From Promethearchaeota archaeon (lineage in GTDB: Archaea; Asgardarchaeota; Hermodarchaeia; Hermodarchaeales; Hermodarchaeaceae), in assembly GCA_048939625.1 (NCBI GenBank), contig JBHLPH010000002.1, forward strand, positions 64,001 through 128,000: 64,000 bases of DNA, written 5' to 3'. The notes under the pieces are model-generated. The model was not told where the DNA came from, ran no database searches, and saw only the letters and a program-made list of their open reading frames with translations. Positions 325 to 23,250 of the stretch are shown one piece after another. How positions within the stretch are numbered: position 1 is the first letter of the stretch; the number at the start of each line of letters is the position of its first letter. The position numbers were made by a program, and so were the translations under genes.

Positions 325-735
325 TTAGGCGAATTCCATTTCGAGGCGTTTGATGGCGTTTTGGAGGACCTCGATGGCTTCAGTATTTTTGGTTTGGATC
401 ATGAGGAGTACGCCTTTTTCGAATTCGGCGAGGGATTTGGTGAAGTCGCGCCAGTATGGGTTTTGTTTCATGGAGAGGGCGATGTCGATAGGCATTTGGT
501 AGCGGCGGTGGAGCCAGCCGATGACGGAGGCGAGGGGAATGTAGATGACGAGGAATACGAGGAGAAAGTAGAGGATGTTGGGGAAGAGGATTTGCATCCC
601 AGGAATATTGACGAGGACGAGTGTGTACATGAGGATGCTGAAATTCATGAAAGCGAGGAAATAGACGAGGTAGGTTCCGTGTCCCGTGCGAAAGTCAGTC
701 CAACGACGTTGGAAAAAACCTTTTTTCGTGGTCAT
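325..735 (-). CDS. Hypothetical membrane protein, 2 predicted TM helices
   Basis: 136-aa ATG ORF with two hydrophobic segments, flanked by the direct repeats. Confidence 0.75.
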   Translation of the reverse strand: MTTKKGFFQRRWTDFRTGHGTYLVYFLAFMNFSILMYTLVLVNIPGMQILFPNILYFLLVFLVIYIPLASVIGWLHRRYQMPIDIALSMKQNPYWRDFTKSLAEFEKGVLLMIQTKNTEAIEVLQNAIKRLEMEFA

Positions 736-840
736 AGTTGATGCATCTCGAAATTACTTTACTAGATTCTGCTTTTATTTCATTGCGGTATGGGATTATC
801 CGGGGATATTAAGGGTAATCAATTGAAGAGAAGCCATGGG

Positions 841-891
841 CGTGGTTCTAGCAGAAGAGCCCTAAAGAGCGGACCACGTGAAGGCGTGGCG
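841..891. repeat. Copy 2 of the imperfect direct repeat (CGTGGTTCTAGCAGAAGAGCC...)
   Basis: See copy 1. Shorter degenerate cores at 973-987 (TTTGCCGTGTTCTAG), 1038-1049 (GTGTTCTAGCAG) and 43-50 (TTCTAGCA). Confidence 0.75.
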
Positions 892-1068
892 TCGTTAGTG
901 TGTTTTTCGTTCTTTGTATTAGAGCCCGCATGAGGTCGTAGTACGCGATAGTTGTAGATTTTGTCAGGGTGATTTGCCGTGTTCTAGATGAATTAGAATG
1001 CGGTAGAAAAGGCTTGTAAGGAAGTAAAGAGGGAGTTGTGTTCTAGCAGTTACAATCAAAACAGCGGG

Positions 1069-1542
1069 TCATGTTTTTAATAGCGTTGCGATTCGTTTTC
1101 CGAAATCTTTGCACTTGGGGAATTCGCCTTCTGTGACCGGTCCTTTCATGCCGTCAACTTGTATTGACAGGCCAGGTGTTATGAGCTTCAATTGAGGAGC
1201 CTTTTCGCGTATTCGCGTCTCTAGTTTCTTCACGGATTTTTCGAAGTCTTCTCCCAGATAGGTGTCGAACACCGCGGCCCATTTCGCTTTCAAGTCGAGT
1301 TTGCCAAGTTTATCAATGAACTTATTTATACCCCTAACTGGTCCTCCAAAATGCGTGGGTGACCCGATCAATATTGCGTCATAATCAGCTGCCTTTTTAG
1401 CATCGGTATCCTTGATATCACTGATAGCAGTTTCTATTTCCTTGACTTCATTGAGTCCCTCCACAATCTTTTCGGCTACAAGCTTTGTGTTTCCGTACTT
1501 TGTATCATAAACTACAAGCACCTTTACCATTTTGTTCACCAT
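1069..1542 (-). CDS. Flavodoxin-like protein
   Basis: FMN phosphate loop YDTKYGNTKLVAE, plus IGSPTH and AAVFDT. Confidence 0.9.
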   Translation of the reverse strand: MVNKMVKVLVVYDTKYGNTKLVAEKIVEGLNEVKEIETAISDIKDTDAKKAADYDAILIGSPTHFGGPVRGINKFIDKLGKLDLKAKWAAVFDTYLGEDFEKSVKKLETRIREKAPQLKLITPGLSIQVDGMKGPVTEGEFPKCKDFGKRIATLLKT

Positions 1543-1668
1543 TCATTACGCTTCTTTTCTGAGTTTTTATGACTTGTGGGAGTCAGCGTGCATGTTCTGA
1601 AGTACTCTGCAGTGCTAGTGATTGCGAAAAGCAATTAGTGATTAGCTGCAAGTAATTTACTGATTGAA

Positions 1669-2070
1669 ATGAACAAAGCTCGAGAAATGACCGAAGAAAA
1701 ATGGAAGAAGAAGTTGTCAAAGGACGAGTATCAAGTATTGCGGCAGAAGGGCACTGAGCGCCCTTTCACCGGGAAATATTGGAAGCATAAGGAGAAAGGG
1801 ACATACAAGTGTGCGGGGTGTGGTTTGGAGTTGTTCTCCTCAGAGGCGAAGTTTGAGTCGGGGAGTGGGTGGCCAAGTTTCTATGAGGCCCTGGATAAGG
1901 ACAAGATTGAGGAAAAAGTGGATCTGTCGCATGGGATGCGCCGAATCGAGGTTCTGTGCAAGAACTGTGGGGGGCATCTGGGTCATGTGTTCGATGATGG
2001 ACCAAGAGATAAGACCGGGTGCCGATACTGTATCAATTCCGTTGCACTCCAGTTTGAAAAGGATGAGTAG
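1669..2070 (+). CDS. msrB: Peptide-methionine (R)-S-oxide reductase
   Basis: GTERPFTG, two Zn CxxC motifs, GWPSF, HLGHVF and RYCINS (catalytic Cys). Confidence 0.97.
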
Positions 2071-2079
2071 TGCAGTGGC

Positions 2080-2331
2080 TTAGGCGATGGCTTTGTTTTT
2101 CAATTCGTGAGTCCGTAGAATAGCGCCCATGACGAGGAGAATTATCCCGCTTAGGATGAATGCAAGGCTGATCCATGGAGCAAGTGGATGGCAGGGACCA
2201 CAGAAATAGAATAGCGATGATCCGAGGACTGTGCCGATGCCAAGACAGACTACGCCAATGATGATTAAACCAGTTCCAAAGGGGACTTCAGGTTTGACTT
2301 CCTTTTCTACGTGTGCGTTTGGTTCCGTCAT
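2080..2331 (-). CDS. Small 2-TM protein with CGPCH in the inter-helix loop
   Basis: 83-aa ATG ORF with a G-rich SD-like element upstream and two hydrophobic helices. Confidence 0.65.
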   Translation of the reverse strand: MTEPNAHVEKEVKPEVPFGTGLIIIGVVCLGIGTVLGSSLFYFCGPCHPLAPWISLAFILSGIILLVMGAILRTHELKNKAIA

Positions 2332-2472
2332 AGTATGATTCCCCTACCCATTGTACTTACTTTGCAGCGTCTTTTTTGAATTTTCCTGTTGAGAAAGGAA
2401 TTTGAGGGAAAACTTTGTGGTAGTAGAAGGCTTTTTTAGCAGAAGCGAATCATAAAGGAGACCCACTGGAGA

Positions 2473-3636
2473 GTGCGTCATGTGCAGGTACTGTTACCTC
2501 CTCCGTTGAACGCGATTGTCACGTTATTGATGATTATTATCTTTCCTGGGTTCCTATTCCTGACAGGCTATGCCTTCTATATGGAATGGGTAGACCGCAA
2601 ATTCTATGCCGACCAACACCACCGCATTGGCCCACTATACACGGGCTGGCGGGGAATCCTCCAACCCTTCGCCGACTTTGTCAAACTCATGGCGAAAGAA
2701 GATGTGACTCCTGCAGCCGTTGATAAGATTGGGTTTACTCTGACCCCTATCCTGGCGCTAGCTATTCCCATCACAGTGCTCATGTTGGTGCCGATTGGCA
2801 TTTCCCAGACTCCCTTCTTCGTGGTGACCGGTATCATGTACTTTGAAGGCGATCTACTCATGATTGGCTTCTTTAGTACCATGTTTACGTTGATGCTATT
2901 TATTGCTGGGTGGTCCTCATCGAACCGGTTTGGGTTTACAGGAGCTGTTCGGGGTATCGTACAGATGCTTGCATATGAAATTCCCCTTCTCCTAGCCCTC
3001 TTCGCTGCCGGTATGGTGGCTGGTAGCCTTAGCCTCACCGGCGTTGTCATCTACCAAGCCAACCTAGGCCTACCCCTCATCGTGAATCCGGCATTCATCG
3101 GACTCTTCATCGTCTTTCTGATTGCCGCGCAAGCAGAAGCCGAACGCATTCCCTTTGATGCCCCTATTGCGGAAACTGAAATCGTCGGGGGCTGGGAAAC
3201 CGAATTCTCTGGCAAGAAACTCGCCTTCTTCCGCCTCTCCAACAACTTCGAAGTGTTACTTGCCTCAGCACTCGGTGCTGCAGTCTTCCTCGGCGGCCCC
3301 CTCGGTCCCGAAGTCCTTATGGTGTTCCTTGCCAATGGTGGCTTCGTTCACAACATCACAATCAACTCTGGACAATACATGACCTGGGTCACCGCAAACA
3401 TGCCCTATCTCCTCATCCCAGGCATCGCCGCCATATACTATACCTTCTGGTTCATTGTCAAAACCACTATCATCGTTCTCATCTTGTCCAACATGAAGGC
3501 CCTTATGTCCCGTTGGCGCATCGACCAAATCGCTCACGATAGTTGGAAATGGGTCATCCCTATAAGCCTCCTCATGGTAGGTATCCTGTTAGCTTGGCCC
3601 TTAATCATGGACTTTATTATCGCCCTGCCCCCCTAG
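2473..3636 (+). CDS. NuoH/HycD/MbhM-family membrane subunit (complex I subunit 1 family, energy-converting hydrogenase type)
   Basis: RIGP..GILQPFADFVKL.KE, QMLAYEIP, RIPFD...AETEIVGG.ETEFSG and R.RIDQ. Start could be GTG 2473 or 2482. Confidence 0.92.
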   Translation: MRHVQVLLPPPLNAIVTLLMIIIFPGFLFLTGYAFYMEWVDRKFYADQHHRIGPLYTGWRGILQPFADFVKLMAKEDVTPAAVDKIGFTLTPILALAIPITVLMLVPIGISQTPFFVVTGIMYFEGDLLMIGFFSTMFTLMLFIAGWSSSNRFGFTGAVRGIVQMLAYEIPLLLALFAAGMVAGSLSLTGVVIYQANLGLPLIVNPAFIGLFIVFLIAAQAEAERIPFDAPIAETEIVGGWETEFSGKKLAFFRLSNNFEVLLASALGAAVFLGGPLGPEVLMVFLANGGFVHNITINSGQYMTWVTANMPYLLIPGIAAIYYTFWFIVKTTIIVLILSNMKALMSRWRIDQIAHDSWKWVIPISLLMVGILLAWPLIMDFIIALPP

Positions 3637-3653
3637 GAGTGTGAAAAGAAAAC

Positions 3654-4049
3654 ATGCCACGACCTGGAGCAATGGAAGGCGAAATCCTCGGTACCGTCCT
3701 CCGACGGAAAACCGCCACGATTCGTTACCCCTTCCAAGAAGCTGTCCGCCCCGAACGCCTTCGCGGCAGCATCGAATACGATATCGAAAAATGCACTGGC
3801 TGCGGTCTCTGTAGTCGCGACTGCCCTGCCACCGCCATCGAAATGGTTCCCTCAACCAAAACTAAAACCCAAAAGAAGCCCCAATTCCGCTTCGACCGCT
3901 GCATATGGTGTGGAACCTGCGAAGCTGTGTGCCCAAAGAAAGCGATTACGTTGACAACGAAGTTTGAATTGGCAGCGTTTTCGTTGAAGGATGAGCATTT
4001 GTTCGTTGTGTCAGAGGATCCGGAGCCCACAGAGAAAGTAGAAGAGTAG
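3654..4049 (+). CDS. NuoI-like 2x[4Fe-4S] ferredoxin subunit
   Basis: T.RYPF...RG and two CxxCxxCxxxCP motifs. Confidence 0.92.
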   Translation: MPRPGAMEGEILGTVLRRKTATIRYPFQEAVRPERLRGSIEYDIEKCTGCGLCSRDCPATAIEMVPSTKTKTQKKPQFRFDRCIWCGTCEAVCPKKAITLTTKFELAAFSLKDEHLFVVSEDPEPTEKVEE

Positions 4050-4144
4050 AGTGTGTACAAATTTGGGCTAATCGTTTCTTCAAGTGGAGAGTAGGGTCTT
4101 TTGTAGTCAGAAACAGTTAAAATTTTTAACCGTAGTTTTGTTTA

Positions 4145-4786
4145 TTGTTCTTGAACGTGGGGGTAGCAGTGGTTAGTTTTGTACTTCAAACTAATCCTTG
4201 GATAAATTGGTTAAACGGAATAGCACATTTGAGTGTGGTAATTCTAATTCTAATCGTGTCAATTGGTTTGCCACTTCTGTGTGGGCTGATTTGGTATGCG
4301 GTTCAGGAAGAACGCAGGCGGAGTTGGTTGAGAAGCAAGGGAGAGGTTCTGCCTGATTTGGTAAGTGAAGATAGTGTGCGGAATTTTTCTGATTCCTGCA
4401 TTGAAAGGATTGACCTGAGGGATTTTGTTATAAAAGGCCCAGGATTGTATCGGATGCGGGTGCATTTGCGGATGGACAGTGGAATTTCGTTTGAGTTAAC
4501 AGGTAAGAAGAGCGCTGCAGGAAAGGTGTATGAGCCGGGTGAAGGAGAAACTGGGATTGAGATAGTGGATCGTCATTTTTGGACTGAGAGCCCTGATTTA
4601 AAATCTGCGATTCGCGTGTTGGACACTCCGAAGGTTAAGAAGGTTTTGGCGAAGTTGAAAAAAGTATATTCTGTACATGTCATGGGGGATGAGATTGAGA
4701 TTGTGTGCGAAGCCAAAATCGAGTTGCTTGAGCCAATTTATGATTTCGTTACTGCATTAGCTCAGGAATTATTGGACAAGAGATGA
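4145..4786 (+). CDS. Hypothetical membrane-anchored protein
   Basis: 213-aa ORF with an N-terminal TM segment followed by RRR. Start uncertain. Confidence 0.65.
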   Translation: MFLNVGVAVVSFVLQTNPWINWLNGIAHLSVVILILIVSIGLPLLCGLIWYAVQEERRRSWLRSKGEVLPDLVSEDSVRNFSDSCIERIDLRDFVIKGPGLYRMRVHLRMDSGISFELTGKKSAAGKVYEPGEGETGIEIVDRHFWTESPDLKSAIRVLDTPKVKKVLAKLKKVYSVHVMGDEIEIVCEAKIELLEPIYDFVTALAQELLDKR

Positions 4787-19475: not shown

Positions 19476-19957
19476 GGCTTTTTTCCACCGGACTGATCTT
19501 TTTTACGATTTAATCGACGAATTTTGGGTACATAGCTGCGGAGGATGCCGTGGGAGAGACTTCCGCAGCCTAGGATAGTGTCGTTGTGGGTGACAATTAC
19601 ATATCCTCTTCGGTCGTCTTCATAATTAACCGATTCCCCTCTGAGCCAAGTTTCTGCCTGCAATCTAGTTAATTGGACGATTTGCTTTGTAGCATGAGTA
19701 CCAAGTAGTTGAGCACCATCCATGGAGAGCCGAAATGCTGTGGGCGAGTATTCACCGATGTATAGTCCGGTTGTGCCAGTGTATGGTAATTCCGAAAGGA
19801 GTGCAAATGCTGCATCACTAATAAGGCGAATCCGTTTGCGTCCTGACTTGAGAAACCTAAATCCAGCAAGTTTTGGAATGCCAAATTGGCTATAGAGTAG
19901 TTGCCAGATGTGGGTTTCCCGCGCAGAATCAATGGTCAGTGTTTGGCCGTGAGACAT
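19472..19957 (-). CDS. RsmF C-terminal/PUA-like (NIP7-type) RNA-binding protein
   Basis: GLYIG..FRLSMDGAQL, WLRGE, GYVIV....LGCG and YVPK.RR. Coupled to the upstream methyltransferase by a TAATG overlap. Confidence 0.8.
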   Translation of the reverse strand: MSHGQTLTIDSARETHIWQLLYSQFGIPKLAGFRFLKSGRKRIRLISDAAFALLSELPYTGTTGLYIGEYSPTAFRLSMDGAQLLGTHATKQIVQLTRLQAETWLRGESVNYEDDRRGYVIVTHNDTILGCGSLSHGILRSYVPKIRRLNRKKDQSGGKKP

Positions 19958-20898
19958 TAGGCGTCCTTCCTGATCAAGGCTATGAAGAAGCCGTCTGTAT
20001 CATTATCCTGTGGATAAATTCGAAGACAGTCTTTGAGAGTTTCATGGTAGTGCGTTTTATTCCAGTAGGTGATTCCGGGATGGTAACGAAGGTTTGCGGG
20101 TTGTGGGGATTCAATGGAAGCCAAAGGAAAAGCACCAAGGAGGTGGTCGACCACCGCTTCATTTTCTTCCGGATGCAGACTGCAGGTTGAATAGACTAAC
20201 AGACCTCCCGGTTTGAGTAAGCGGAATGCTGCTGTTAGAAGTCCTTTTTGGATAGTCTGGATGCCGAGAATACGTTGAAGATTAGTAACCTCATATTGAG
20301 GTGATTTACTGCGAAGATGTCCAGACGCGGTGCATGGGGCATCAACAAGGACGCGATCGAATTGAAGAGGGATTCGTGTGGATAGGTGTCGACCATCTTG
20401 GCAAAGTGTGATAGTATTGATGACGCCACACACCTGTATATTGTGACCTAGGCTGGTAAGCCGTCGGAAAGATCTGTCGTTCGCAATTAGTGCGCCTTCG
20501 TTTTTCATCATCTGAGCGATCTGAGTGGTTTTCGATCCGGGAGCGGCACATAAATCAAGAACAACATGGTGTGATTGTGGGTCTAAAATTACGGGAGGAA
20601 CCATACTTCCTCCTTCTTGAATATAGAATAGCCCTAGCGAATATTCTTGGGTAAAGGGGAGTCGCTCATAGTCCCCAGTGATGCGGAATCCATCTGAATA
20701 CCAGGGAAGTGGAACGGGATTAACATTGAGGGCTTCTAATCGAGCGAGACCTGCTGTGAGGTCGGTTTTGATTGTGTTGATGCGGATGAAGTGAGTGGGA
20801 GGTTGGGAAATTGAAGCGAGGAAGCTTAGGTATTCATCTCCAAGAAGGATTTGGAATCGTTCTTCGAAAGCCGATGGGAGAGATTTAGATTTGTTCAT
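19957..20898 (-). CDS. RsmB/NOP2/NSUN-family RNA m5C methyltransferase
   Basis: RINT.K, YIQE..SM.P, DLCAAPGSKT, DAPC, YSTCS..PEENE and DGFF. Confidence 0.95.
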   Translation of the reverse strand: MNKSKSLPSAFEERFQILLGDEYLSFLASISQPPTHFIRINTIKTDLTAGLARLEALNVNPVPLPWYSDGFRITGDYERLPFTQEYSLGLFYIQEGGSMVPPVILDPQSHHVVLDLCAAPGSKTTQIAQMMKNEGALIANDRSFRRLTSLGHNIQVCGVINTITLCQDGRHLSTRIPLQFDRVLVDAPCTASGHLRSKSPQYEVTNLQRILGIQTIQKGLLTAAFRLLKPGGLLVYSTCSLHPEENEAVVDHLLGAFPLASIESPQPANLRYHPGITYWNKTHYHETLKDCLRIYPQDNDTDGFFIALIRKDA

Positions 20899-20926: not shown

Positions 20927-22072
20927 TCATGGCGGGGAAGAACTAAGCCGATTCCGATGAATTGACCAGGTGGATATAACGCGATTGCCATCAACAACGT
21001 AATAATGAGCAAAAAGGTTAGCTGTCAGGCATGAATGGTTTGGAATTATACGAAGATGATCACCGGGCGAGAGCGCCTTATGTTGTGTTTTGTCAGCAAA
21101 CGTGATTTTCCCATGTTCCTGAGATAAGCTCGTTATTATTGCCTGATGTGTGGTGTTATTTTCATCCGGATTAAGAACCACTCCATATCCTTGGTTTGAT
21201 GGAATATGTGCTGCTCCGGTATCCTTGGATAAGGCAGTGGCACCGGCGTCGACCACCACATGCGTATCTTGGACACCAACTACGCTGGTAAGCACTGATA
21301 GAGCACAATCGGTGAACCGGCACACGCCAAGTGCGACTTGAGTATTATCAAAAAAGACATAGTTGCCAGGTCGAATTTCGGTTATTCCATCTTTAAATCG
21401 AGTTGCCAGCTTGGCGGTGGGTGTTGAACCTATCGAAACAACCTCAGAAGCTAGTCCATGAGATTGCAAGCTGTCAGAGAAGTGGAGCATTATATCTTGT
21501 TCATGATTAGCAATTGCCTGGATTTCCTGTGGGGATTGAGCAGTGTATGCATGACCCGCATGAGTGAGGATTCCTCCAAAGGTCAGGTTAGACGCCGCAT
21601 CAATTTGCTTTGCAAGAGAAATCGCACGGGAGTCTTGAGGGTCAATCCCACATCGATGATATCCACAATCCACCTTAACTAAGACGGTGAGCTGGAGATC
21701 TGCCGCAATGGAATAGGCTTCCAAGAGGGGAATCATTGCGGAATGATCAGTGACGATATTGAGTTGAGCTTGTTGAGCAAGTTCACCTAGACGAGGAAAT
21801 TTATCAGGAATAATAGGATATGCAAGTGTCACATCCATAAACCCATGATCAATGAACGTACCAGCTTCCCCCAAAGTCGAGACAGTGATGCCGTTTGCGC
21901 CGTATTCACGTTGGAGATTCGCGATTTCCATACATTTGTGTGTTTTAATGTGAGGGCGAAGACAAACCTTGTTTTGATGAGCCTTATCTGCCATGTTCTT
22001 TATGTTTCGGAGAAGTCTACTTTTCTCAATGAGCAAAGCAGGAGTGATTAGGTCATCAATTTTCATCAACAT
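20927..22072 (-). CDS. PLP-dependent fold-type III enzyme, D-serine dehydratase/D-threonine aldolase (DSD1) family
   Basis: TPAL, RPHIKTHK (PLP Lys), HAGH, GSTP, EIRPGNYVF, SQEHG and IPNHSC. Start reassigned to ATG 22072/22066. Confidence 0.92.
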   Translation of the reverse strand: MLMKIDDLITPALLIEKSRLLRNIKNMADKAHQNKVCLRPHIKTHKCMEIANLQREYGANGITVSTLGEAGTFIDHGFMDVTLAYPIIPDKFPRLGELAQQAQLNIVTDHSAMIPLLEAYSIAADLQLTVLVKVDCGYHRCGIDPQDSRAISLAKQIDAASNLTFGGILTHAGHAYTAQSPQEIQAIANHEQDIMLHFSDSLQSHGLASEVVSIGSTPTAKLATRFKDGITEIRPGNYVFFDNTQVALGVCRFTDCALSVLTSVVGVQDTHVVVDAGATALSKDTGAAHIPSNQGYGVVLNPDENNTTHQAIITSLSQEHGKITFADKTQHKALSPGDHLRIIPNHSCLTANLFAHYYVVDGNRVISTWSIHRNRLSSSPP

Positions 22073-22111
22073 CAACTCGTAAATGAACGGATCAACTGCT
22101 GAGAATGTGAA

Positions 22112-22200
22112 AGGTGTGGCTCCGCCTTGACTGAACCCACTTTCCTCGCAGCTCCTAACGGAGGCCTCGGTGGGTTTAAGATAGCCGTGTCGACGGAGCC
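22112..22200 (-). ncRNA. Box H/ACA pseudouridylation guide RNA (single hairpin, K-turn, ACA box)
   Basis: Minus strand: 9-bp lower stem GGCUCCGUC/GGCGGAGCC directly followed by ACA (22117-22115). Pocket strands GGCUAUCUUA and CAGUCA; upper stem AACCCAC/GUGGGUU; CCGA...GCGAGGA K-turn-like motif. ACA is 16 nt from the upper-stem base. Confidence 0.85.
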
Positions 22201-22302
22201 AACTATGCTTTCTGTTCAGCACCTGAAAAAAGCTCCCGTAGAGCGACAAGTGCAACCTTTTTTAACCGCAACAAGCAAAACCCCGTAGTCGAGGGACGCT
22301 TT

Positions 22303-23250
22303 ATGGTGAGCCTAAAATCGTATGAAAAGGTCCGGAAAGCTCTTGAAAAAATCGGGTTACCCGGACAAGATGCCTATGATTTACCAACCAGCGACCACCG
22401 GTTTCCAGATGGAGCCGGCTATCGGATTGAAATCTCGGGCGTTGAACGCCCGGAAGTCTTAGAAGCACTAATTGATGAATCGGATAAACGCGATGTGCCA
22501 GTTCATCGCCTCATTAGTGTCGTCATGGGAGCAACGCTTCTTGACGATAAAGAACTGAAGAAATTTGCCCAACTAGCCCATGATGCACAAATGGAAGTGA
22601 TCCTTACCCCTGGCCCACGAACCAGCTGGGATGTGGGTCGACAACTTGTTACATCTGAAGGTGTCCTGTCAGGAATGCGCTTTCGCGGCGCTGATAAGCT
22701 AGTAGAAGTTATTAGCGATATCAAAAGGGGCATTGAACTAGGCTTCCGAGGTTTCTTAGTCATCGATGAGGGACTACTCTGGGCTTTGAACAAGCTCAAA
22801 GAAATCGGTGAAATCCCGAAGGATATTACCTTCAAGGTAAGCATCTTTGCTGGCCACGCTTCCCCAGCGGGTGGTAAACTGCTAGAAGAATTAGGCGCAG
22901 GTAGCTTCAATCCAGTTGCCGATATGACCGTGCCCCAACTAGCAGCTATTCGCCAAGCAACAAAGCTGCCAATTGACATTCACATCATGCTCATGCCCAG
23001 CTTTGGTGGATTCAATCGATTCTATGAAGCAGCCGAAATTACACGATGCGTCCAACCAGTGTACTACAAATTTGAACCCGGACCGAGTATGGCCTTGTAC
23101 ACACCTTGGTCCTCGATTGACGGCCTAAGTTTCCTTGCCCGTGAAAAAGTCAAATGGGCTGAAATTGTACGAAACTTGATCCAAGATAATTATCCAGAAG
23201 CGAAATTATCAAAACTCGGAGTCAAGGACTTAGCGATCCCTCAACCCTAA
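22303..23250 (+). CDS. Conserved TIM-barrel-like protein (often labelled U32-like), function unknown
   Basis: 315-aa ORF with RFPDGA.YRIEI, G.RGFLV.DEG.L and FKVS; co-oriented with the DapA-Fae gene. Confidence 0.7.
   Translation: MVSLKSYEKVRKALEKIGLPGQDAYDLPTSDHRFPDGAGYRIEISGVERPEVLEALIDESDKRDVPVHRLISVVMGATLLDDKELKKFAQLAHDAQMEVILTPGPRTSWDVGRQLVTSEGVLSGMRFRGADKLVEVISDIKRGIELGFRGFLVIDEGLLWALNKLKEIGEIPKDITFKVSIFAGHASPAGGKLLEELGAGSFNPVADMTVPQLAAIRQATKLPIDIHIMLMPSFGGFNRFYEAAEITRCVQPVYYKFEPGPSMALYTPWSSIDGLSFLAREKVKWAEIVRNLIQDNYPEAKLSKLGVKDLAIPQP

Follow-up and report, generated by a model that had tools for sequence, protein, structure and literature searches.

The window analyzed here is a 64,000-nt stretch of one contig from a Hermodarchaeota MAG (2.31 Mb, 83 contigs, 87.6% complete). 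Its minus strand carries an H/ACA-type RNA of 89 nt at 22200-22112, in which a hairpin, a pocket, a second hairpin and an ACA follow one another (Table 1). R1, a covariance model derived from the alignment of the genus, scores 110 bits at 22112-22200. No Rfam family matched anywhere in the window at the gathering threshold. When 21900-22400 was searched at E ≤ 10, nothing overlapped the RNA; outside it, MALAT1, SNORD25 and SNORD108 gave hits at chance level, and there were no others. A sequence-only reading of this stretch had described an unannotated hairpin-pocket-ACA element at this place; the stems and the ACA on the minus strand bear out the layout. The internal loop that forms the pocket is asymmetric: 22191-22176 make up a 5′ side of 16 nt and 22134-22127 a 3′ side of 8 nt.

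The RNA occupies a non-coding gap of about 230 nt. An open reading frame running from 20927 to 22255 formally covers it. However, the Pfam domains of the encoded D-serine-dehydratase-like (DSD-like) protein begin only at residue 77, and 22072 and 22066 offer in-frame ATG codons. It follows that the frame is falsely extended by 61-63 codons at its start, and the RNA lies inside that extension, as had been suggested from the sequence alone.

The next genes in the direction of the RNA are the DSD-like gene and a gene for an RNA m5C methyltransferase of the RsmB/RsmF family. The DSD-like gene separates the RNA from the methyltransferase gene in nine genomes from two genera, that of the host and its sister genus. 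It is absent from at least seven loci where the RNA is intact, and where it is missing the methyltransferase gene follows the RNA directly. One genome (G008) retains a 50-aa remnant of the DSD-like gene, which comes and goes at this spot. In relatives a separate small gene with an RsmF PUA-like domain stands after the methyltransferase gene (e.g. L009, 2668-3096). The conserved methyltransferase and PUA-like neighbors suggest that this may be a small cluster of RNA-modification genes. On the other side of the RNA, the product of the divergent 315-aa gene is 81-97% identical across 15 loci of both genera (tblastn), and no match to its sequence was found in Pfam, NCBIfam or PDB.

Upstream of the RNA an A/T-rich box is found at the same distance in both genera, and the sequence between box and RNA is not conserved. 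This box, 22224-22232 in the window, is a candidate promoter of the RNA gene, from which the RNA would be expressed as a discrete small RNA.

Table 1. Features of the RNA gene and its surroundings (positions in the 64,000-nt window)
Feature	Position	Strand	Remarks
Whole predicted box H/ACA sRNA	22112..22200	-	89 nt; 5′ end at 22200; 3′ end is ACA + 3 nt
Lower stem, 5′ strand	22192..22200	-	9 bp with 22118-22126; 6/9 pairs with compensatory double changes (19 distinct sequences); 100% of cells paired
Lower stem, 3′ strand	22118..22126	-	partner of 22192-22200
ACA box	22115..22117	-	abuts the lower stem on its 3′ side; invariant in every complete homologue
Upper stem H2, 5′ strand	22170..22175	-	6 bp with 22135-22140; C-G to U-A double changes in 4 sequences
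5′ guide strand GGCUAUCUUAA	22176..22186	-	pairs with 23S equivalent to E. coli 1925-1935; invariant in 14/14 genus genomes
3′ guide strand AGUCA	22128..22132	-	pairs with 23S UGACU (E. coli 1917-1921); central GUC invariant
U + C topping the 3′ pocket strand	22133..22134	-	unpaired with target; C opposite C1922; genus-invariant
Apical module, K-turn-like motif	22141..22169	-	ends in a short hairpin, 22163-22160 with 22155-22152
T-rich TATA-like box	22224..22232	-	-32 to -24 from the first base of the RNA; purine-rich stretch before the box
DSD-like gene	20927..22072	-	Ala_racemase_N + D-ser_dehydrat (Pfam); downstream of the RNA, not part of it
RsmB/RsmF-family RNA m5C methyltransferase gene	19957..20898	-	PF01189, 173 bits; conserved downstream neighbor of the RNA gene
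315-aa gene of unknown family	22303..23250	+	divergent from the RNA gene at every locus

Conservation, covariation and the predicted fold

Searches for homologues were performed with blastn and with the R1 model, and both gave the same picture. The RNA is present in one copy per genome in 14 of 14 genomes of the same genus and in three of four genomes of the sister genus; no copy was found in the 132 other sampled Asgard genomes at E ≤ 0.1. A weak model match in G010 was set aside, as it appears to lie within coding sequence. In addition, a metagenome scan returned six contigs, all of which carry the same RNA.

The 19 stem pairs were followed through 19 distinct sequences, and all 361 of the resulting cells form standard pairs. 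Seven pairs, of which six belong to the lower stem, show compensatory changes on both sides. Sliding the 3′ partners by one to three columns left just 29-44% of the cells able to pair. The alignment used for these counts was fitted to the model; a plain MAFFT alignment of the genus was also 100% paired, and RNAalifold recovered the lower and upper stems unaided. The covariation check proposed with the sequence-only reading came out positive. Sixteen G-U cells would become A-C mismatches on the plus strand, which identifies the minus strand as the functional one, and indels of 1-2 nt in the loop and in the pocket spacer break any reading frame and exclude coding.

Across the 17 genomes the conserved block runs from the G that opens the lower stem to a few nucleotides past the ACA, at the predicted 3′ end; the flanks are not conserved. 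Inside the block the genus shows no variation at the 11 bases 22186-22176, at the central GUC in the 3′ strand, at 22134-22133 (U and C) or in the ACA; changes are seen in the five spacer bases (22191-22187), in the terminal loop and at several positions of the stems. Invariant guides and ACA next to a varying spacer and loop are the pattern of an antisense guide, not merely of a structural hairpin. A fortuitous hairpin that happens to match rRNA would be in keeping with a single-sequence fold only modestly better than those of shuffled sequences (z = -2.3) and with a plus strand that folds about equally well. We give such an origin practically no weight in view of the conservation in 17 genomes, the compensatory changes, the invariant ACA and guides, the non-conserved flanks and the unique rRNA match described below.

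The position of the element could also be explained by a cis-acting role, for example as an L7Ae-binding K-turn switch in the 5′ leader of the DSD-like or RsmF-like methyltransferase gene. At every locus the element lies 27-45 nt upstream of the next gene and in the same direction, it contains a K-turn-like motif, and archaeal K-turn leaders are known. However, the RNA is unchanged whichever gene follows, be it the DSD-like gene (nine genomes) or the methyltransferase gene directly (at least seven loci). Conservation is lacking between the ACA and the start codon, and no part of the element pairs with a ribosome-binding site or start codon. Nor would a leader explain why the ACA and a 16-bp complementarity to rRNA are invariant. 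Since the RNA stays the same in front of different genes and the spacer drifts, we consider a leader role highly unlikely.

The apical module above H2 was examined as a K-turn, which the sequence-only reading had included in its layout. In the register proposed here GA 22168-22167 forms a sheared tandem with GA 22144-22143, 22147-22145 forms the 3-nt bulge, 22166 and 22148 make the G-C pair that closes the stem, and C 22169 would provide the position-3 pair against 22142/22141. None of the 19 sequences departs from the four GA/GA purines or from this G-C, and variation is seen at the first bulge nucleotide and at the position just after the second GA, both of which K-turns tolerate. Against this, the register needs one extra nucleotide on the 3′ strand, the stem beyond the closing pair (C-stem) is irregular, and RNAalifold favors a different apical pairing. 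Thus the invariant GA/GA above a 6-bp H2 speaks for the earlier assignment and these irregularities against it; judged by the sequences, the module is likely a K-turn, whose register we infer, and L7Ae would be expected to bind there. In the genus alignment, columns 36 and 51 pair in 11 of 13 sequences, with two double changes and one single-side change. An alternative register with GA/AA at 22147-22146 was rejected, as its first purine varies between G and A; it would also separate the motif from the pocket by 8 bp and a 4-nt bulge. The apical-module pattern was found seven times in the host genome, and this RNA was the only hairpin among the matches.

RNAalifold also pairs the two guide strands with each other over 4 bp (22186-22183 with 22132-22129), and the A/G variation at 22132 keeps its pair with the U at 22183. 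The free RNA may therefore hold its pocket closed.

As regards the protein partners, the host MAG encodes Nop10 (79 bits), L7Ae (94.6 bits) and a candidate Cbf5, a 335-aa TruB_N protein. The only Gar1-like ORF of this MAG (G000) lies on contig 12 (L110, 64871-65086); it encodes 152 aa and scores 28.7 bits against a Pfam cut-off of 29.3. Taken with this machinery, the conservation, the covariation, the strand-specific G-U pairs and the ACA and guides leave the core of the earlier H/ACA proposal standing, though not the exact 3′ pairing it contained. We regard it as highly likely, from the comparison of sequences, that 22112-22200 on the minus strand is a genuine H/ACA pseudouridine guide RNA of Hermodarchaeota. 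A home-made H/ACA descriptor applied to the host genome recovered this RNA; the other matches, about 45, look like noise, and no second H/ACA gene was established among them.

Complementarity to helix 69 of 23S rRNA

No 23S rRNA was found in the host MAG, either by pattern searches, exact or allowing 3 mismatches, or with the LSU model of Rfam, and SSU rRNA is missing from it too. The target was for this reason read from relatives, using 23S fragments of the congeners G005 (two contigs) and G007 and of G017 and G015 from the sister genus. In all of them GGGAG is followed by the helix 69 loop, CUCUC and then UUAAGGUAGCC.

The 5′ guide strand, GGCUAUCUUAA (22186-22176), had been said to be complementary to UUAAGGUAGCC with one G-U pair, and this holds in the 23S of the congeners: 10 Watson-Crick pairs and one G-U pair are formed with the equivalents of E. 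coli 1925-1935. In homologues with a U before the guide the pairing reaches 1936 and comprises 12 bp. Sister-genus copies carry one or two mismatches to this target at the top of the 5′ guide, whose 7-bp core is intact. The 3′ guide AGUCA (22132-22128) pairs with UGACU, E. coli 1917-1921, over 5 bp, or 4 bp in some homologues. Between the two guide helices three target bases, C1922-U1923-C1924, remain unpaired. The bipartite match thus consists of 15 Watson-Crick pairs and one G-U pair, 16 in total.

On the 3′ side the sequence-only reading had predicted that CAGUCA pairs with UGACUG immediately 5′ of the target U, and hence a helix 69 stem of GGCAG/CUGUC. CAGUCA is present at 22133-22128, but its UGACUG partner is missing: G005, G007 and G017 all read UGACUC, so that five pairs are formed instead of six and C faces C. 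The stem of both the congeners and the sister genus is GGGAG/CUCUC, an outcome that the reading had itself named as refuting it, and the CUGUC variant occurred in none of the Asgard 23S sequences found. With this prediction gone the pocket becomes atypical, leaving three target bases unpaired instead of two and placing the U at 17 rather than 14-16 nt from the ACA.

In the 3′ guide, position 22132 is A or G, either of which pairs with U1921, and 22128 is A, G or U. As these two variable bases face target U's and change between A and G, the pairing of the 3′ guide is kept; the two sequences with U at 22128 lose one target pair.

All available LSU and SSU rRNA of the family was scanned. With its 16 pairs the helix 69 site was the best in mature rRNA, and the next site had at most 13 pairs and depended on G-U. 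About 1e-3 chance matches are expected in 4.5 kb of rRNA with G-U freely allowed. The 2.3-Mb host genome has two such sites only, each of which needs 5-6 G-U pairs. Taken together, these data make it very likely that the RNA targets the 3′ strand of helix 69 and the linker that follows it.

The guides themselves were also used as a query. To look for the guide elsewhere in Asgard, 400 genomes were searched with a strict pattern made up of the 10-nt 5′ guide, the 5-nt 3′ guide and the ACA, with gaps between them. It gave 18 matches outside the family, compared with about 40 for a reversed control. The one match that looked hairpin-like (L139) was rejected because it has no lower stem.

Pocket geometry, the predicted modified base and known guides

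The distance from the ACA to the pocket was counted along the RNA. The lower stem contributes 9 nt, one unpaired A follows and the 3′ guide helix adds 5 nt, which gives 15 nt. C at 22133 faces C1922 at position 16, and U1923 is the 17th nucleotide. In Pyrococcus H2 has 5-6 bp, the distance between ACA and target U is 14-15 nt, the 3′ guide helix is dominant and an unpaired UNN is tolerated; a 17-nt spacing was non-functional in in vitro tests (PMC2377435). A review gives 14-16 nt for archaea, with the K-turn 5-6 nt above the pocket (PMC7991803). The 6-bp H2 and the 15-nt span of lower stem plus 3′ guide agree with the Pyrococcus rules (PMC2377435). U1923 lies outside the 14-16 nt range, and the pocket is non-canonical in that a C-C mismatch or extra unpaired base stands 5′ of the U and the U and C of the guide are left spare. 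A further point against the predicted target is the shortness of the 3′ guide helix, just 4-5 bp on what is reported to be the more important side.

A different standard is provided by stem-loop 2 of sR-h45 from Haloferax volcanii, a helix 69 guide that requires its ACA, leaves four target bases unpaired and acts on U's at 17 and 19 nt (PMC7075261). There the most 5′ unpaired U is converted, modification still takes place when the U lies one base 3′ of its usual position, and a terminal paired U can be modified through breathing (PMC7075261). Because an archaeal guide works at 17 nt, the position of U1923 weakens the case for strict H/ACA membership, not for the mechanism.

The identity of the target base in eukaryotes follows from the numbering. 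Yeast Psi2258/Psi2260 correspond to E. coli 1915/1917 (PMC2794176), so that Psi2264 (guided by snR3) corresponds to 1921 and Psi2266 (guided by snR84) to 1923. The equation of the target U with E. coli 1923 and yeast Psi2266 made in the sequence-only reading is correct (PMC2794176). The equivalents of 1921 and 1923 are pseudouridylated in human 28S too, as Psi3747 and Psi3749 (PMC2794176).

U1923, the sole unpaired U, is the best candidate for the modified base, and the balance of probability is somewhat in its favor. U1921 is the second candidate, being at the canonical 15 nt from the ACA but paired. For the mechanism as a whole we propose the following. A single-hairpin archaeal box H/ACA sRNA would be transcribed from the minus strand (22200-22112) under its own promoter and would assemble with Cbf5, Nop10, Gar1 and L7Ae. 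Its pocket would capture unfolded 23S at two places: the 3′ guide would bind UGACU, which comprises the end of the helix 69 loop and the start of the 3′ strand (1917-1921), and the unusually long 5′ guide would bind the 11-12 nt after helix 69 (1925-1936). C1922-U1923-C1924 would remain unpaired at the top of the pocket, where Cbf5 would turn U1923 into pseudouridine. That all of these steps hold, up to the conversion of U1923 by a single-hairpin guide RNP, seems to us fairly probable.

The same guide might instead modify U1921 (yeast Psi2264), or U1921 and U1923 in turn, if the pair between 22132 and U1921 breathes and U-C-U-C behaves as an unpaired UVUN, as in stem-loop 2 of Haloferax sR-h45. 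U1921 is then at the canonical 15 nt and U1923 at 17, U-C-U-C fits UVUN with V = C, and both 1921 and 1923 are pseudouridine in yeast and human. In Haloferax alternate U's at 17 and 19 nt are modified, with breathing of the terminal pair (PMC7075261). However, double modification in Haloferax needs the first three bases of UNUN to be unpaired (PMC7075261), and U1921 can pair (A-U or G-U) in every homologue. Moreover, without the U1921 pair the 3′ helix would shrink to 3-4 bp, with 3 bp in the two sequences that have U at 22128. Modification of U1921, alone or in turn with U1923, is therefore judged unlikely. The narrower proposal that one Asgard pocket makes both helix 69 stem pseudouridines (1921 and 1923; Psi2264 and Psi2266) by a sequential UVUN mechanism is quite improbable.

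Among known archaeal RNAs, the predicted guide with U1923 as its target resembles in architecture the single-hairpin sRNAs of Thermococcales (Pab21, Pab91, Pab160/Pf9; PMC2377435). Both have one hairpin, an ACA after the lower stem and an internal pocket, and both combine a 6-bp H2 with bipartite pairing to rRNA (PMC2377435). The Thermococcales RNAs have a K-turn/K-loop module above H2 and Cbf5, Nop10, Gar1 and L7Ae as partners (PMC2377435), to which the likely K-turn and the predicted partners of the Hermodarchaeota RNA would correspond. No similarity in sequence or to Rfam models is detectable between them, and the Hermodarchaeota RNA is longer (89 nt). Its 5′ guide is much longer (11-12 bp) and its 3′ guide short (4-5 bp), and its pocket leaves three target bases unpaired, the U being central and 17 nt from the ACA. 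The 1923 site is not among the 17 pseudouridines of P. abyssi.

Stem-loop 2 of H. volcanii sR-h45 likewise has a pocket on helix 69, more than two unpaired target bases and a U at 17 nt, an atypical geometry for which it depends on the ACA (PMC7075261). It belongs to an RNA of two hairpins and makes the universally conserved loop pseudouridines 1915 and 1917 (PMC7075261). Compared with that site the Hermodarchaeota guide is shifted about 8 nt downstream, onto the 3′ strand of the stem, and no homology is evident.

In eukaryotes yeast snR84 and snR3 and the guides for human 28S Psi3749/Psi3747 serve the same predicted position, 1923 or possibly 1921 (PMC2794176), and can be considered functional analogues. 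They have two hairpins, H and ACA boxes and no K-turn, and bind Nhp2. Restriction of the Hermodarchaeota RNA to one archaeal family argues for an origin independent of the eukaryotic guides.

The two helix 69 stem pseudouridines are known from yeast and human (PMC2794176); in the archaea checked, P. abyssi, Haloarcula marismortui and Haloferax volcanii, the pseudouridines of helix 69 are in the loop only. No paper linking Hermodarchaeota with pseudouridine was found in the literature searched. The RNA very probably represents an uncatalogued family within the well-known H/ACA class, confined, as far as searched, to one Hermodarchaeota family. The advance is incremental, as the family is narrow and the class well understood. 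A conserved guide for a stem position would nevertheless mean that archaeal machinery is able to serve a modification site of the eukaryotic type, and if the dual-site reading were true, modification of the helix 69 stem would predate eukaryotes instead of being a eukaryotic invention. The RNA also offers a natural example of a non-canonical pocket, with an unpaired N-U-N and the U at 17 nt from the ACA, on which spacing rules can be tested.

Introns in the rRNA genes of relatives

The 23S genes of both congeners are interrupted in the target region. Group I introns (RF00028) were found after the equivalent of position 1931 in G005 (contig 17, L063, 401-663, minus strand, 70 bits) and in G007 (contig 20, L064, 3249-3498, minus strand, 61 bits). 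A second 23S copy of G005 (contig 60, L065, approximately 452-1152) has an insertion of about 700 nt between 1923 and 1924, which contains ORFs of 96-158 aa and matches the group I model below threshold (25 bits, E 3.6e-4). L1923 and L1931 are known archaeal insertion sites of group I introns (PMC6125680).

The L1931 site falls within the stretch paired by the 5′ guide, and the L065 insertion is directly 3′ of the predicted target U. With its target split in the rDNA of these congeners, the guide would recognize spliced rRNA only, and modification there would have to follow splicing. The unspliced junction of contig 60 (3′ end of the intron plus exon) can form 6 + 10 pairs with the guide, also 16, which is probably a matter of chance.

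The positions of these introns bear on one further explanation, in which the H/ACA RNP binds without modifying and serves as a chaperone of folding or processing, holding the linker between helices 69 and 71 open, much as yeast snR30 employs its pocket in processing and not in modification. The paired stretch spans the L1923 and L1931 intron sites, so that timing relative to splicing matters, and an unusually long 5′ guide (11-12 bp) and a non-canonical pocket would suit such a role. In snR30, however, pairing of this type takes place at the bottom of the pocket, and here it is at the top, beside H2; an unpaired U is offered where the catalytic site expects one, and the site is a known pseudouridine of eukaryotes. 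We see only a slim chance that binding without modification is the function of this RNA.

The SSU rRNA genes of the family are heavily interrupted as well. In G005 (contig 71, L116) the gene extends over 619-4212, i.e. 3.6 kb for 1478 model positions, and SSU matches are fragmented in G015 (contig 142, L120), G003 and G017. Interruptions of this kind may explain why rRNA is missing from most MAGs of the family.
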